NCBI RefSeq assembly: GCF_029232205.1
Contig: NZ_CP107255.1
Location: 450,001-482,000, forward strand
Origin: Candidatus Saccharimonadota bacterium
GTDB taxonomy: Archaea > Nanohalarchaeota > Nanosalinia > Nanosalinales > Nanosalinaceae
Reading direction: 5' to 3'
DNA length: 32,000 nucleotides
Part shown: positions 12,496-24,871 of the stretch, piece by piece
Position numbering within the stretch: position 1 is the stretch's first letter
Layout: every line of letters starts with the position of its first letter
Position numbers and translations under genes: made by a program
Notes under the pieces: model-generated
Database searches by the model: none
The model's input: the letters and a program-made list of their open reading frames with translations, nothing else
Told to the model about the DNA's origin: nothing

Positions 12496-12569
12496 GGGCT
12501 CTTAGTTCAGCCTGGCGGAACGCTTCCTTGGCAGGGAAGAGGCCGTGGGTTCAAATCCCACAGAGTCCA
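12496..12569 (+). tRNA. tRNA-Ala (anticodon GGC), no encoded CCA
   Basis: Hand-folded cloverleaf: acceptor GGGCTCT/AGAGTCC with the G3:U70 alanine identity pair; D stem GTTC/GAAC; anticodon stem CTTCC/GGAAG with loop TTGGCAG; T arm GTGGG-TTCAAAT-CCCAC; discriminator A. TTTATAA lies about 35 nt upstream. Confidence 0.9.
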
Positions 12570-12616
12570 CTACCATCAATTTTCTGAGAAGGCCCTGTTT
12601 TCTTCATATGCAAAGA

Positions 12617-18851: not shown

Positions 18852-19478
18852 CTACATCATCCATTTTTCTTCCCATCTTCTAATCCTATCTCTCCACTCC
18901 TCTTCTTCTAGATCATTTTCAGAATCTTCCTGCGCCCGTTCCTCACTATTCCTAAGGTACAGGCCTACAGCAGCACCTGCAAACATTCCAAAAAGATGAG
19001 CCTCGTACGCCACATTGTTCTCCGCCCCAAGACCTAGCAAATTCAACGCAATATAGCCCAAAAGCACAACCCACATCGGCGCTGGAACACCAAAAACAAG
19101 ACCGATCTTGTTAGGCCTGTAAACAGCCAGCGCTGCCAGAATTCCAACTGCACCACCAGAGGCCCCGATAATAACCGAGTTAGGGAAGAAAATAAAGGCC
19201 GTAAGATTTCCAACCAGTGCAGAAATAAGGAAGGTTCCCATCAAAGTTTTTTCATCAGTCATCAACTCATAGATGCTGCCAAATAGAGCGATAAAGAAAA
19301 TATTGTTGAACAAGTGCTCAGGCCCTGAATGGCCTAGGAAGGATGTGAAGAACTTCCACAAAGGAGATACGCCGGCCTGAAATCCTGGCTGCCAACCGTA
19401 AACTGTCTGACCTAGAAATACCAGTGCAAGAAAGAACGAAAAAATCAAGGCCGTGAATCTGAACTGTCTGTCTTTCAT
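18852..19478 (-). CDS. rhomboid-family intramembrane serine protease
   Basis: EHLFNN (H..N), GASGG catalytic serine motif (IIGASGGAVGILAA) and AHLFGMFAG catalytic His, in a ~6-TM protein. Confidence 0.85.
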   Translation of the reverse strand: MKDRQFRFTALIFSFFLALVFLGQTVYGWQPGFQAGVSPLWKFFTSFLGHSGPEHLFNNIFFIALFGSIYELMTDEKTLMGTFLISALVGNLTAFIFFPNSVIIGASGGAVGILAALAVYRPNKIGLVFGVPAPMWVVLLGYIALNLLGLGAENNVAYEAHLFGMFAGAAVGLYLRNSEERAQEDSENDLEEEEWRDRIRRWEEKWMM

Positions 19479-20083
19479 TGTACTGGTTCTGCGAGCACCC
19501 AGAAATGGGTTTCCTCTCGGTAATCCTCGGTGTAGGTTGTTATTATTTCGAATCCGGCCTTTTCAAGCAGTTCGACATTCTTTTCAGCGGAGTAAGAGCT
19601 CCATACCATTTCCTGGCCTCCGATCTCTCCCTCAAAATCATCCATCTCATCAGGGCCTAGAGTGATTAAAATAGCTCCCTCATCACTAATCCATTCTCTA
19701 ATCTTCTTGAAGAGATCAAAATGCTCTTCACGCGGAATATGGAAGATAGCATAAAAGCTGACTACTGCATCAAAAGAATTTTCCCCGAAATCATTTTCAA
19801 AGAAGTCTCCCTGCAGAAAATCAGCTTCAGGAACATTTTCACGCGCCATCTCTACATGTTTCTCAGAGATGTCAACGCCTGTGACTTGATGATCTTTCTC
19901 TACAAGAAAACGGTCGAAAGGAAGGCCTGTACCACATCCAAGATCCAGAATCTTGGACTCTGAAGGAATACCGTCAAAAAGGCTCTCCATCAGCTCTCTT
20001 TCCTTCTCTCTGACCTCTCGGCCTTCGCGATAATCGCCTTCATAGTCGCCCTTGTCGTAGCCTTCCTTTACCTTGTCTCTCAT
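19475..20083 (-). CDS. class I SAM-dependent methyltransferase
   Basis: Motif I ILDLGCGTGLP, followed by VTGVDISE and an acidic loop (DAVVSFYAIFH). ATGA overlaps at both ends (20080-20083 and 19475-19478). Confidence 0.8.
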   Translation of the reverse strand: MRDKVKEGYDKGDYEGDYREGREVREKERELMESLFDGIPSESKILDLGCGTGLPFDRFLVEKDHQVTGVDISEKHVEMARENVPEADFLQGDFFENDFGENSFDAVVSFYAIFHIPREEHFDLFKKIREWISDEGAILITLGPDEMDDFEGEIGGQEMVWSSYSAEKNVELLEKAGFEIITTYTEDYREETHFWVLAEPVQ

Positions 20084-21684
20084 TCCTCTAGCTGCCTCAA
20101 AATTTCAGCAGTATCCTCTACCCCGATTGACATGATCAGTCGGGAAAGTCGAGGCCCCTGCTCACGTGAAAGAAGGGTTTTGTAGGCTGCAGTGAAGAAC
20201 TCGCCGGTTCCCAGCGCCGAATCCTCTTTAACATCGAAGATCTTACCGTCAAGATCATCCTGATCCTTGAAATCAGTGGATTCCAGCTTATCAGCAAGCA
20301 GAACCATGGCCTCCTTCTCATCCTCGCTTAGATTATCTCTTATCTCGTGTGTGATTTCTTTATTGATCTCATAGACATAGTCTTCTGGAGCGTAGTCGCG
20401 AGCCCAGTTCTTCGCTCTTTCAAGTCTTTCCAGCACTCTCTCCGCATTTCTCTCGGAGATATCCTCTGGAATATGGCCTGTACGTTTCAAGGATTCAAGG
20501 CCTTTCTCCTCCCACTCTTCTTCAGGTACTGTCTGCGCGATGAAGGCTGCGTGCTGGAAAGGAACTCTTACAGGCTGTTCTTCAGGAATATCGACCATTG
20601 CAATCTCGTAAACTCTCTTCCAGTGTTCTCTCTTTCTATCGTTCTCGACTTCTTCAGGATTGAAGTAAGCGTTCTCAACCTTGTCGAAGTTATCATATCT
20701 TTGGAAGATGTCTTCTGACTGGAAAGGAATCTCGAAGGCCTTGCTTGGCTTCGTATTGGAGAACAGGAATCTGATGATCTCCGGAGAATAAACCTCTTTC
20801 AGTGTGGAAACCGTAAATACGTTTTCTCCTGATGAGGAGGAGATCTTGGCGCCATCTTTTGTAACAAATTCGTACATCTGGTGGACAGGTACATGGCCGT
20901 CAAATACTTCCTGAACAATCTCGTTAGCGGTGTCTCTTGATCCTCCTGAGGCTGAGTGCTCTTTACCAGCAGGCTCAAAGTCAACTCCTTCGTATTTCCA
21001 TCTCATAGGCCAGTCAACTCTCCATGGTGGCTTAACATTTCCTTTCTCCTTGAAGTTAAGCTCTCTTTCCTCTTCACATTCCTCACAGTAGTAGGTAACG
21101 GTGTATTCCCCGTCGTAATCTCGTACTTCTGTGAAGTCTTTCTCACATTCTGTACAGTAAACTCTCAGAGGATAGTAAGGTTCTTCGAGAGGTTCTCTTC
21201 GGTATTTGTCAAGTATTTCTTTGATTTTATCACGGTGCTGAAGGCCTTTCTTGATTAGATCGGCGTACTCTGCTCTCTCAAACATTTCGCTCTGTCTGAT
21301 GAACTCAATGTCCATATGCATTCCTTCAAGCTCTTCCTCAAGTCGAGACTCGAAGTGATCTGCGTAACTGTCGTGGCAGCCCTCTGGGTCTGGTACCTTG
21401 CTGAGTGGAAGGCCTAAGTACTGTTCGAAGTCGTCAGGTACGTTGGCTGGAACCTTTCTGAAACGATCGTAGTCGTCCCATGAGTAAATGAATCGGACGT
21501 TTTCCCCATAGTTCTTCAGTGACTTGACAACGAAGTCTGTAGTAATTATTTCACGGAAGTTACCTGCGTGCACGAGGCCTGAAGGAGAAATTCCCGATGC
21601 ACACACATATTCTTCCTGATCTTCAAATTTTTTCCTGACTCCGAAAGCCAGTTGATCGCTCCAAAATAGCGGTTGATCACTCAC
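20080..21684 (-). CDS. lysK: lysine--tRNA ligase, class I (archaeal type)
   Basis: ASGISPSGLVHAGNFRE (HIGH-like HAGN), a KMSKS-like GAKISSSSGE, and the overall length and order of class I LysRS. The start is GTG at 21684. Confidence 0.9.
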   Translation of the reverse strand: MSDQPLFWSDQLAFGVRKKFEDQEEYVCASGISPSGLVHAGNFREIITTDFVVKSLKNYGENVRFIYSWDDYDRFRKVPANVPDDFEQYLGLPLSKVPDPEGCHDSYADHFESRLEEELEGMHMDIEFIRQSEMFERAEYADLIKKGLQHRDKIKEILDKYRREPLEEPYYPLRVYCTECEKDFTEVRDYDGEYTVTYYCEECEEERELNFKEKGNVKPPWRVDWPMRWKYEGVDFEPAGKEHSASGGSRDTANEIVQEVFDGHVPVHQMYEFVTKDGAKISSSSGENVFTVSTLKEVYSPEIIRFLFSNTKPSKAFEIPFQSEDIFQRYDNFDKVENAYFNPEEVENDRKREHWKRVYEIAMVDIPEEQPVRVPFQHAAFIAQTVPEEEWEEKGLESLKRTGHIPEDISERNAERVLERLERAKNWARDYAPEDYVYEINKEITHEIRDNLSEDEKEAMVLLADKLESTDFKDQDDLDGKIFDVKEDSALGTGEFFTAAYKTLLSREQGPRLSRLIMSIGVEDTAEILRQLEE

Positions 21685-21758
21685 TGCAGATCACCGTTAT
21701 TTTGTTCGAAGAAATTTGATCCTAAATTTCGGCTCCAGAATAAAGGCTGCTCGCTCAT
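21681..21758 (-). other. 25-codon upstream ORF (MSEQPLFWSRNLGSNFFEQNNGDLQ) duplicating the lysK N-terminus
   Basis: Hand translation. Its ATG at 21758 lies about 27 nt downstream of TATAAAAA (complement of 21781..21788). Its TGA stop overlaps the lysK GTG (GTGA). Codons 1-9 parallel lysK codons 1-9. Confidence 0.4.
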
Positions 21759-21780
21759 GAAGGCCTTTTATCTACAGAAT

Positions 21781-21788
21781 TTTTTATA
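21781..21788 (-). promoter_or_regulatory. TATA box (TATAAAAA on the - strand) positioned for a leaderless transcript starting at the uORF ATG 21758
   Basis: Read directly from the sequence. A second TATA-like TTTTTAAG (21811..21818) faces the + strand about 28 nt before ATG 21842. Confidence 0.5.
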
Positions 21789-21841
21789 CCGCTCGATCCT
21801 CAAGCACCAATTTTTAAGCATCCAACCCTTCAAGAAGATAC

Positions 21842-23470: not shown

Positions 23471-24871
23471 TTACTCTTCTTTCTCAAAGGCCTTCTTCAC
23501 ATCCTCTTCAACTTTCTCAACTTCCTCCTCAATCTCCCTTTCTTCTTTCTCAACATCTCGTTCGATCTCCTCAACCTCCTCTTCAATCTCATCTCTCTCA
23601 AAATAAAAGAACTCGGCAACGAATACAACCGCAAAAATACCTCCAATGTAGTACAGCATATGCTGATTAGTCCTGAAAAGATGCACAATCAACAGTACAA
23701 GTGCAGATAAAGACCCGAGCAAGCCAAAGGCCGGCACCCAGCCATTATTCCTTGATTCTCTATCCTTCAGACAGATGAAGTTCACAATGGCAAATATGCT
23801 GATGAAGGCCACAGATGCGAAGGTTGTAACTTCTTCAAGAGAGCCCAGAAAAGTAAATAATGCAGTAAGGCCTCCAACCACGGCAATGCTATGGGTGGGT
23901 ACTCCCTTCGAGTTTCGGAATGAGAAAAGATCTGGTAGTTCGTTGTCACTTGCAATCCTGTAAGTCAGACGTGAAGTACCGAACAAGGTGGCGTTGATAG
24001 CTGACGCAGTGGAGAAAAGAGCCGCAACTGAAACAAGTAGTACGCTGCCTGTCTGCAGGAAGTAATTATGGAAAATCTGGGAGGAGGCAAAGGCCAGAGC
24101 AGTCTCTTTATGAACAGCAATCTGCTCAGCAGTCATCAAGTTGGTAGTAACAAGAGCAACAAGAACATAGATCAAAGTAGAGGCAATAACCGAGATATAG
24201 GCCGCTTTCTTCAGCGTATCGTGGCCTCCTTCAATCTCGGAATACTCGTAGGTAAGCAACTGAAAACCCTCAAAAGAAACAAAAATAGCTCCAACAGCAA
24301 AGATCGGTGATAGAAATCCGTGCTGCAAAACACCTTCCGCGAAAAACGTCAGCTCAGGCCTCTGAAAAATCATGTACAGCCCGGAGATGGAGAAAAGGCC
24401 TAGGATACAGATCTTGGCATATACAAGCAGATCTTCTGAACTGCCAGCCTTCGAAGGACCCAGAAAGTTAACAAGCACAAACAATCCGATAATTCCAACA
24501 GATAGAACAGGCCTCAAAAGTTCTGAAGTAAAGGGAAGAGCGTTAGCGGCAAATGAACCAAAAGCATAGGAGTACATGGCCATAGTCCCGATATATCCAA
24601 CTACAAGAATCCAGCCAACCATTCCAGCGATATTCTTATTGTCAACGTAATGCTCGAGAAAAGTAAAAGATCCTCCTTCATCCTCAAGGTGCGATGTCAT
24701 GTTAACATACGAGTAAGCAGATGCTAGGGCCACAAAACCAGCCAAAAGATACGCAATAAAGGCAGCATCACCTGCAATCGAGGCCGCAACACCAAGTGCC
24801 GCGAAAATACCACCGCCAATAATTCCTCCGATACCCATCGCAACTGATTCCTTAAGACCCAGATCGCTCAT
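23471..24871 (-). CDS. APC-superfamily amino acid/polyamine transporter with an acidic repetitive C-terminal tail
   Basis: About 12 TM. The N-terminal GIGGIIGGGIFAALG motif is typical of APC permeases. The C-terminal ~45 aa is E/V/I/K repeats (EIEEEVEEIERDVEKEEREIEEEVEKVEEDV). Confidence 0.8.
   Translation of the reverse strand: MSDLGLKESVAMGIGGIIGGGIFAALGVAASIAGDAAFIAYLLAGFVALASAYSYVNMTSHLEDEGGSFTFLEHYVDNKNIAGMVGWILVVGYIGTMAMYSYAFGSFAANALPFTSELLRPVLSVGIIGLFVLVNFLGPSKAGSSEDLLVYAKICILGLFSISGLYMIFQRPELTFFAEGVLQHGFLSPIFAVGAIFVSFEGFQLLTYEYSEIEGGHDTLKKAAYISVIASTLIYVLVALVTTNLMTAEQIAVHKETALAFASSQIFHNYFLQTGSVLLVSVAALFSTASAINATLFGTSRLTYRIASDNELPDLFSFRNSKGVPTHSIAVVGGLTALFTFLGSLEEVTTFASVAFISIFAIVNFICLKDRESRNNGWVPAFGLLGSLSALVLLIVHLFRTNQHMLYYIGGIFAVVFVAEFFYFERDEIEEEVEEIERDVEKEEREIEEEVEKVEEDVKKAFEKEE

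Follow-up and report, generated by a model that had tools for sequence, protein, structure and literature searches.

Strict coupling by termination-reinitiation is established in Haloferax volcanii for gene pairs with an overlap of 4 or 1 nt (Huber et al. 2019, PMC6728339); there, the Shine-Dalgarno (SD) sequence aids reinitiation but does not aid de novo initiation within 5' untranslated regions (UTRs) (PMC6728339). This coupling collapses at an intergenic distance of about 20 nt (Huber et al. 2023, PMC10666635). Very few cis-acting elements of translational control are known in archaea, and literature and Rfam searches found none for an aminoacyl-tRNA synthetase (aaRS) gene or in DPANN archaea. 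The subject of this study is a 110-nt segment at the 5' end of lysK, the gene for lysyl-tRNA synthetase (LysRS), in a 32,000-nt stretch of a nanohaloarchaeal genome (contig NZ_CP107255.1, positions 450,001 to 482,000; hereafter the window, in whose numbering all coordinates are given). This segment is probably the 5' leader of the lysK mRNA, and would make synthesis of LysRS depend on translation of a short upstream open reading frame (uORF).

Anatomy of the lysK 5' Region

lysK (20080..21684, minus strand) encodes a class I LysRS of 534 aa. The identical protein is recorded as WEL23375.1 / WP_347721284.1 for Ca. Nanohalovita haloferacivicina BNXNv, a nanohaloarchaeon grown in culture, whose closed genome measures 1.05 Mb (Reva et al. 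2023, PMC10266531). The protein has full-length homology to tRNA-synt_1f as well as the N-terminal FW(S/A)DQ motif, as expected of class I enzymes; 4865 homologues were found, PF01921 is recorded for the listed matches, and W8, D10 and Q11 are invariant in 29 sequences. The gene starts on a GTG at 21684. Because the in-frame codons just upstream of it are stops (TAA, TGA), this GTG is the sole start that gives the conserved N-terminus of LysK.

The promoter lies further upstream. A TATA box, TATAAAAA (21781..21788, minus strand), is centred 26.5 nt before an ATG at 21758, which opens a uORF of 25 codons plus TGA (21681..21758, minus strand; MSEQPLFWSRNLGSNFFEQNNGDLQ and stop). With the TATA box about 27 nt before this ATG, the uORF is probably leaderless, that is, translated from the transcript's very 5' end. 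For the majority of genes in the window, likewise, no SD accompanies the start and a TATA-like box stands about 25-32 nt upstream of it, so most of them appear to be leaderless as well. SD motifs are rare here, SD-like sequences being present only at lysK and at the starts 25275 and 29516, the latter belonging to an internal gene with an ATGA overlap. That of lysK is GGTGA (21691..21695, minus strand), 6 nt upstream of the GTG; the nanohaloarchaeal SD consensus is GGAGGUGA (PMC10783764). An internal promoter for the GTG was considered but is unlikely, since no TATA-like box was seen about 27 nt upstream of it.

The uORF begins with nine codons, MSEQPLFWS (copy 1, 21732..21758, minus strand), whose peptide is identical to the LysK N-termini of the homologues P0001 and P0002. 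The nine codons recur 74 nt downstream of the uORF ATG as (M)SDQPLFWS (copy 2, 21658..21684, minus strand), the working start of lysK with its GTG. The uORF ends on a TGA (21683..21681) that overlaps this GTG, giving a 4-nt GTGA stop-start overlap (21681..21684, minus strand). All of these elements (TATA box, 25-codon ORF, 74-nt spacing, overlap and GTG start) had been noted in a preliminary description of the sequence and were found again at the same positions. The two 27-nt copies differ at exactly seven positions, five of them third codon positions, as that description also had it; a repeat search reports the pair as 26 nt, 77% identical and 74 nt apart. Of all the window's ORFs with 80 aa or more, lysK is the only one with an ATG-anchored near-copy of its start (at least 16 of 24 nt) upstream, and no other gene in the window was found to have a duplicated start. 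Between the copies lies a 23-nt motif, TTCTTCGAACAAAATAACGGTGA (21691..21713, minus strand; written TTCTKCGAACARRAYAWSGGTGR as the leader motif), which takes in the 3' end of a first hairpin (H1), a linker, the 5' arm of a second hairpin (H2) and the SD. It matches the window only once (0 expected), and includes the palindrome TTCGAA.

Distribution and Conservation of the Leader

The comparison set consisted of 38 distinct nanohaloarchaeal lysK loci (L001 and so on). A homologous leader is present at 11 of these, the window included, and a degenerate one at a twelfth (L096). The resemblance between the two starts, which the preliminary description took from a single genome, therefore recurs in 11 further lineages: L003, L007 (Nanohaloarchaea archaeon SG9), L008 (a Nanohalobium metagenome-assembled genome), L088, L164, L166, L167, L168, L169, L171 (Ca. 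Nanohalococcus occultus SVXNc, with the leader at about 435,450-435,523 of CP104395) and the degenerate L096, whose LysK proteins are 64-81% identical to that of the window. Two cultured organisms, Ca. Nanohalovita haloferacivicina BNXNv and Ca. Nanohalococcus occultus SVXNc, carry it, and both are kept in laboratory co-culture. The nearest relatives of the window (L001, 95% aa identity; L002 and L084, 87-88%) have its promoter almost base for base without the 74 nt: TATAAAAA is followed after about 23 nt by ATGAGCGAGCAACC..., encoding MSEQPLFWSDQLAF. With so short a separation, lysK should be leaderless in these three lineages, in which the window promoter drives the gene at the same distance from the ATG. 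All 11 lineages with a leader have a TATA-like box 23-29 nt before the uORF ATG; measured from its centre, the distance is 26-29 nt, or about 33 nt in L003, L007 and L008 if the box is read differently.

The uORF is 24-42 codons long in the clear leaders and 16 in L096, and starts like LysK, with the consensus M[ST].Q..P[LI]F[WR][ST]R. Its stop always overlaps or adjoins the lysK start, as NTGA (ATGA or GTGA) in nine other lineages, as TAATG in two, and as ATGAGTGA, with an 8-nt overlap, in one. L164 is instructive, as its lysK begins ATGGAC; because this start offers no TGA, the uORF ends on TAA, and the overlap becomes TAATG, of 1 nt. The stop-start overlap, to which the preliminary description had ascribed a geometry of termination and reinitiation, is thus real and conserved across related lineages. 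All 12 leaders, and no leaderless locus, have GGTG[AG] 6-7 nt ahead of the lysK start. GTG starts of lysK are likewise confined to loci with a leader (three of 11).

The spacing from uORF ATG to lysK start in the 11 clear leaders is 71, 74 (four times), 77, 80 (three times) or 125 nt, all equal to 2 modulo 3, with 85 nt as the exception; the 50 nt of L096 again equal 2 modulo 3. In 11 of 12 leaders, insertions and deletions have left the frame intact. The frame of the uORF has no stop in any of the 12, while the other two frames contain stops in 12 and nine of them, respectively; the per-sequence shuffle probabilities of an open frame multiply to 7e-9, a product of lineages that are not independent and whose leaders are only 50-70% identical. 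The peptides themselves are unrelated past the first ~10 residues, and the Trp is replaced in four of 11 lineages. The 23-nt motif is near-identical in the window, L088, L164, L166 and L167, yet falls in two different frames: one set of lineages reads it as FFEQNNGD, the other as SSSNKISV. To judge from these sequences, selection acts on the leader RNA rather than on the uORF peptide.

Two leaders depart from the common form. In L168 (L168:2376-2500), a 51-nt insertion after copy 1, which bears small inverted repeats of its own (CAGCTTCTGACCAGAAGCTG, CAGCTTTTCTAAAGCTG), lengthens the uORF to 42 codons, with frame and ATGA overlap kept. L096 (571-683; the same as L106) has a shortened leader with a 16-codon uORF, MIQIRSPFLHELKVSL, retains a TAATG overlap and GGTGA, and scores 42 bits with the covariance model described below; by its sequence it looks like a leader in decay.

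Two Hairpins in the Leader RNA

The leader can be drawn with two hairpins. H1 (21711..21730, minus strand) pairs GAAAUUU (21730-21724) with AAAUUUC (21717-21711) across the loop AGGAUC; across lineages its base is constant (GAAA/UUUC) while its top covaries freely. H2 (21662..21704, minus strand) pairs CAAAAUAACGGU (21704-21693) with ACCGCUAUUUUG (21673-21662, lysK codons 4-8), and its arms are found in the window as an inverted repeat of 12 nt with 92% complementarity. The SD tail, the uORF UGA and the lysK GUG all lie within its loop or extended stem. Minimum free energy (MFE) folding also predicts H1. In the MFE fold, H2 extends through GAUC/GAUC, such that GGUGAUC is fully paired and the GUG is left in a 5-nt apical loop.

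Pairing statistics were taken from a MAFFT alignment of seven leaders (A4), which was fitted to no structure, and compared with 500 shuffles. Of the cells in H1 and H2, 89.8% are paired, versus 77.0 +/- 1.9% in the shuffles, and 10 of the 21 pairs are changed on both sides, which none of the 500 shuffles reaches; registers slid by 1-3 columns are only 40-52% paired. The two helices contribute separately, with six of nine pairs changed on both sides and 88.9% of cells paired in H1, and four of 12 pairs and 90.5% in H2. In a model-fitted alignment (A5; 36 matches, about 15 of them leader-bearing), all nine H1 pairs are changed on both sides. Five held-out sequences are 88.6% paired in H1 and 76.7% in H2. 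A covariance model built on the seven sequences recovers the other five leaders at 42-77 bits, whereas leaderless loci score 13-27 bits, mostly over the 42-nt lysK 5' end only. When the 77-nt segment with H1 and H2 is folded by MFE, the SD falls in a stem and the start codon in a loop in seven lineages (z -1.3 to -7.4). Eight G-U cells in H1 and H2 would become A-C mismatches on the opposite strand, which places the structure on the mRNA strand.

A switch of the H2 5' arm to copy 1 was considered and rejected, as this arm pairs better, and covaries, only with copy 2. By hand count, copy 1 offers 10 of 12 pairs and copy 2 11 of 12 in the window, against 8/12 and 12/12 in L167 and 6/12 and 11/12 in L171. 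The H1 loops are of 3-6 nt in 10 of the 11 clear leaders (12 nt in L166) and unrelated in sequence; the H2 loop holds the start codon. No Rfam 15 family reaches its gathering threshold, the two matches near the leader at E <= 10 being chance matches far below threshold, and no tRNA-like fold was found in the leader. Mimicry of tRNA-Lys, or membership in a known RNA family, was accordingly set aside. Taken together, the leader is probably a conserved structured element of about a dozen nanohaloarchaeal lineages and not a one-off scar or error, as far as comparison of sequences can tell.

Origin of the Duplicated Start

The two copies have different affinities. The peptide of copy 1 is precisely that with which LysK of the closest leaderless relatives begins (MSEQPLFWS), and the copy adjoins a promoter of L001/L002 type without a break. 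In contrast, L003 (81% aa identity overall) is a far better match than L001 for copy 2 and the ~15 nt that follow, copy 2 itself being identical to L003 at 24 of 27 nt and to L001 at 17 of 27. Over the first 45 aligned nt of lysK, the window agrees with L003 at nine of nine informative sites, whereas the remainder of the gene agrees with L001 at 273 sites versus 80 (Fisher p = 2.4e-6). A recombination scar that carries the 5' end of a diverged lysK allele, one of the readings offered in the preliminary description, is supported by this mosaic. The same description took the pattern of differences to reflect divergence under protein-level constraint. The copies did diverge under such constraint, but the cause is simple: copy 1 is the resident start and copy 2 the start of another lineage, and because the copies come from different lineages, their synonymous differences are explained without selection on the uORF peptide.

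It is likely, on these sequence grounds, that the ancestor of the clade was leaderless and that the leader was imported by homologous recombination from an unsampled, leader-bearing relative. The left crossover would have fallen where the uORF start of the donor is homologous to the lysK start of the resident gene, near TTCTGG at ~21737, and the right one at about nt 40-55 of lysK (window ~21646-21631). The imported tract (21631..21737, minus strand; boundaries approximate) would comprise the end of copy 1, the leader, copy 2 and ~40-55 nt of lysK. The resident MSEQPLFWS would thereby have been left as the start of a uORF, and a foreign GTG-SDQPLFWS brought in. Part of the L003-like signal would also arise if the L001 start descended from copy 1. 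This is disfavoured by the Ser9 codon: both copies in the window use AGC, which the uORFs of L164, L169 and L088 share, and L001, L002 and L084 have TCA or TCG; two sites downstream of the repeat (CAA, GCT) also agree with L003. Two considerations count against import. Retention of the leader in the window with two losses in its relatives is equally parsimonious, opposed only by the Ser9 codon and the two downstream sites, and no donor was found among the sampled lineages, whose closest leader is only 68% identical to that of the window.

On the LysK tree, the distribution of the leader is patchy, which fits repeated loss and gain. As the uORF opens with a copy of the lysK start, a leader can be lost by deletion between the copies or gained by recombination. 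L104 presents the reverse event, with an L007/L008 promoter and an N-terminus that starts like the L007 uORF, without a leader. Two other processes were sought within the leader. For a tandem duplication of lysK nt 28-74 as source of the leader interior, no residual similarity was found (summed local-alignment score 161 vs 152 +/- 8 in shuffles; 76 of 500 shuffles as high), a result that does not disprove the hypothesis. Concerted evolution of the copies within lineages is unsupported in the 18-nt core (own-copy identity 134 vs 132 +/- 3.9, P = 0.35); L088 alone shows concerted-looking copies, anecdotally, over the first five codons.

Proposed Mechanism and Alternatives

As the leader is read here, transcription would start at or next to the ATG at 21758, ~27 nt past the TATA box, and the uORF would be translated in the leaderless mode. 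On ribosome-free mRNA, H2 is predicted to pair the SD region (CGGUGAUC) with lysK codons 3-8, leaving the GUG in the apical loop. Direct initiation at lysK would then be poor, because H2 hides the SD and constrains the GUG. A ribosome on the uORF would unwind H1 and then the 5' arm of H2, terminate at the UGA that shares bases with the lysK GUG, and reinitiate at this GUG with the aid of the GGUGA 6 nt upstream. A GUG would be tolerated as start because it is not used for leaderless initiation. The lysK leader shows two marks of a termination-reinitiation (TeRe) pair, namely a 4-nt co-directional overlap and, inside the upstream ORF with a 6-nt spacer, an SD, which in such pairs helps coupling without being essential to it. 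H2, weaker in five lineages, has the form of a duplex that sequesters the ribosome-binding site (RBS). H1, strongly conserved, would be the best candidate for a modulated element. A leaderless initiating ribosome protects only ~16 nt (Gelsinger et al. 2020, PMC7261190), and H1, at +29, would therefore not disturb leaderless initiation. Of the earlier suggestion that lysK was displaced behind an insertion and now depends on reinitiation, the first part stands, as the gene does sit behind the leader, while the coupling is only probable.

Several observations weigh against a role in coupling. The transcription start site, the translation of the uORF and the coupling itself are all inferred. The leader is found in one third of lineages and missing from two thirds, the closest relatives included, which means that it is dispensable, and perhaps close to neutral. 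At the lysK start, ATGAGTGA gives TGA in both alternative frames, and part of the stop-start overlap is hence a by-product of Met-Ser-Asp codons. The helices were drawn by eye from the same sequences on which they were first counted. In L003, L007, L008, L166 and L096, H2 is weak or shifted in register; L003 has the alternative pairing of ACGGUGGUU with AACCACUGU, and L008 pairs the SD with an upstream segment. The folding energy of the whole leader is unexceptional (z -0.95 to +0.45), and only the 77-nt segment stands out, in 6-7 lineages.

Such points could be accommodated if the leader were a tolerated recombination scar, in which lysK is initiated independently by the SD at the GTG of a leadered mRNA and the uORF, translated or not, is irrelevant. 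Absence from two thirds of lineages, the closest relatives among them, would follow, as would a good SD at the right distance from the start, the poorly conserved uORF peptide with its Trp replaced in four of 11 lineages, and an overlap that is partly automatic from ATGAG(T/C)GA codons. However, an open uORF persists in 12 of 12 diverged leaders (shuffling gives 7e-9), 11 of 12 have kept the frame through their indels, the TAATG overlap is retained where TGA is unavailable, and compensatory changes occur in two hairpins, one of which sequesters the SD; in addition, a haloarchaeal SD does not support de novo 5' UTR initiation (PMC6728339). A mere scar is thus an unlikely explanation.

H1, the best-supported helix, might instead act as a transcription attenuator, in which H1 with its U-rich 3' side (UUUCUUC; UUUUCUU in relatives) terminates transcription early and a ribosome on the uORF blocks H1 to allow read-through. 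Archaeal RNA polymerase terminates at oligo-U tracts, and a pyrimidine- or U-rich run follows or overlaps H1 in all lineages. Nevertheless, the run lies mostly within the 3' arm of H1 and not beyond the stem, in this genome it is merely UUU-C-UU-C, and a terminator scan finds no terminator-like site. At the leader, neither the terminator hairpin with U-tract and exclusive antiterminator of the trp/pheST type nor support for alternative pairing was found. As attenuation would also leave H2, the SD and the stop-start overlap unexplained, it appears improbable.

Equally centred on H1 is the proposal that it is an operator to which a protein binds in order to repress or activate lysK translation, the binder being LysRS itself, as with ThrRS on thrS, or another factor. 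Bacterial aaRS genes are autoregulated, and E. coli ThrRS binds the thrS mRNA. The conserved base of H1 (CGAAA...UUUUC) beneath a variable top, and the palindrome TTCGAA in the 23-nt motif, would suit a binding site, but neither H1 nor H2 has a conserved loop, no UUU or CUU anticodon-like triplet occurs in a 7-nt loop, and there is neither a tRNA-like fold nor an Rfam match. An operator is therefore somewhat less credible still.

A lysine-sensing leader peptide, in which stalling at Lys codons when Lys-tRNA is scarce would open the lysK RBS, has an architectural counterpart in the combination of a leaderless small ORF (sORF) with an RBS-sequestering duplex (bioRxiv 10.1101/834739), and would be akin to the mycobacterial poly-Cys sORFs or to the pheST attenuator. 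A Lys codon directly follows W-[ST]-R in six of 11 lineages, some of which have a Lys-Lys pair. However, the uORFs of the window and of L166 have zero Lys codons and four others have one, and the A-rich motif that gives Lys in one frame gives Gln-Asn in the other. Lysine sensing through the peptide is rejected on the lack of a Lys codon in the window uORF and is very improbable as a general account. The preliminary description's suggestion of a regulatory leader peptide finds no support as worded there, given a peptide that is not conserved past ~10 residues, a motif read in two frames and the lack of Lys codons in the window uORF.

The least credible account, also raised in the preliminary description, makes the duplication an assembly artefact or two-strain chimera, for which the resemblance of the copies to alleles of two lineages and a Logan contig (L173) that stops 5 nt within copy 1 might speak; it is virtually ruled out, because that contig, from an independent assembly of run SRR26436575, agrees with the window at every base from nt 6 of the uORF through both copies and the intervening 47 nt into lysK, the source is a closed genome from culture, and the arrangement recurs in assemblies of many unrelated samples. 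The break in L173 could reflect the short repeat or coexisting leaderless and leadered variants in the culture.

Two further candidates were tried and rejected. A frameshift or bypass that yields an extended LysRS is contradicted by the in-frame TAA and TGA before the GTG, and no slippery site was found. For a bypass of the T4 gene 60 type, UGG-AGC is matched in the window but not in L003, L008, L166 or L168, and no stop follows the take-off codon.

Beyond coupled reinitiation in this one genome, the leaders may represent an undescribed family of archaeal cis-regulatory RNAs, in which a leaderless uORF and two hairpins gate LysRS by a signal at H1 and the duplicated start serves as a recombination cassette, through which homologous exchange among lineages could turn lysK from leaderless to gated and back. 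This wider proposal is tentative and, on balance, doubtful. The signal could be translational capacity, a binding protein, salt or temperature.

Genomic Context

lysK, a gene for an S-adenosylmethionine (SAM)-dependent methyltransferase and a rhomboid protease gene are joined by ATGA stop-start overlaps (20080-20083 and 19475-19478, minus strand). As these overlaps chain its genes, the operon downstream of the leader is probably translationally coupled throughout. The methyltransferase gene between lysK and the rhomboid gene occurs in only some of the lineages, a difference that sets L001, L003 and L166 apart from L002, L164, L165 and L167-L171; the rhomboid gene and a divergent M50 peptidase are constant neighbours in all of them. 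In L173 (L173:1671-2278; window ~19935), one G is missing in the GCGTG (SAM-binding) motif of the methyltransferase, which splits the 202-aa protein into 60 + 124 aa, as either a variant in the culture or an assembly error. Elsewhere in the window, an amino-acid permease (23471-24871, minus strand) has a long, repetitive and extremely acidic C-terminal tail (…EEEVEEIERDVEKEEREIEEEVEKVEEDVKKAFEKEE), and tRNA-Ala(GGC) (12496-12570, plus strand) is the sole RNA gene found by Rfam or ARAGORN.

Comparison with Known Systems

The lysK leader accounts for both the GTG start and the apparently missing promoter in the annotation of a closed genome. An element of ~100 nt would here unite leaderless initiation, termination-reinitiation and an RBS-sequestering hairpin, which have so far been studied apart. 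The model can be tested directly, as two carriers are in co-culture and the host genus Haloferax has reporter systems. A duplicated gene start together with recombination would also offer a simple route for gain and loss of a leader, which bears on the interconversion of leaderless and leadered genes in archaea. If the cassette reading is true, a regulatory element spreads horizontally and is lost without mobile-element machinery.

Among bacterial aaRS genes, the pheST, thrS and T-box leaders resemble that of lysK in placing a structured 5' leader before the gene, with a small ORF in the case of pheST. The lysK leader differs in that it has no tandem regulatory codons, and no terminator or antiterminator, anticodon-like loop or specifier, or Rfam match was found in it. 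The uORFs detected by ribosome profiling in Haloferax volcanii (Gelsinger et al. 2020, PMC7261190) are likewise small ORFs in archaeal mRNA 5' regions; on the other hand, they were catalogued without conserved structure, overlap geometry or similarity to the downstream start.

The nearest architectural analogue is found in the mycobacterial poly-Cys "ribulon" sORF attenuators (Canestrari et al. 2020, bioRxiv 10.1101/834739), where a leaderless sORF is the first cistron and an RBS duplex follows. Ribosomes on the sORF relieve sequestration of the RBS, as is proposed for lysK. The lysK uORF lacks a cognate run of codons, with zero Lys codons in the window, and its overlap implies reinitiation and not mere unmasking. 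Moreover, it is archaeal, and precedes an aaRS gene and not a biosynthetic operon.

With the overlapping TeRe pairs of Haloferax volcanii and E. coli (PMC6728339, PMC10666635), the lysK leader shares the co-directional 4-nt overlap and the SD inside the upstream ORF. Here too, local structure at the overlap can block de novo initiation, and the organism is mostly leaderless and SD-poor. In the TeRe pairs, however, the overlap is an operon junction between subunits of a complex, while that of lysK lies in the leader of a single housekeeping gene; its upstream partner is a 25-codon uORF without a conserved product, is itself probably leaderless, and copies the downstream gene in its first nine codons. 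The lysK leader is thus a new combination of known mechanisms, which introduces no new principle but is unusual for archaea.

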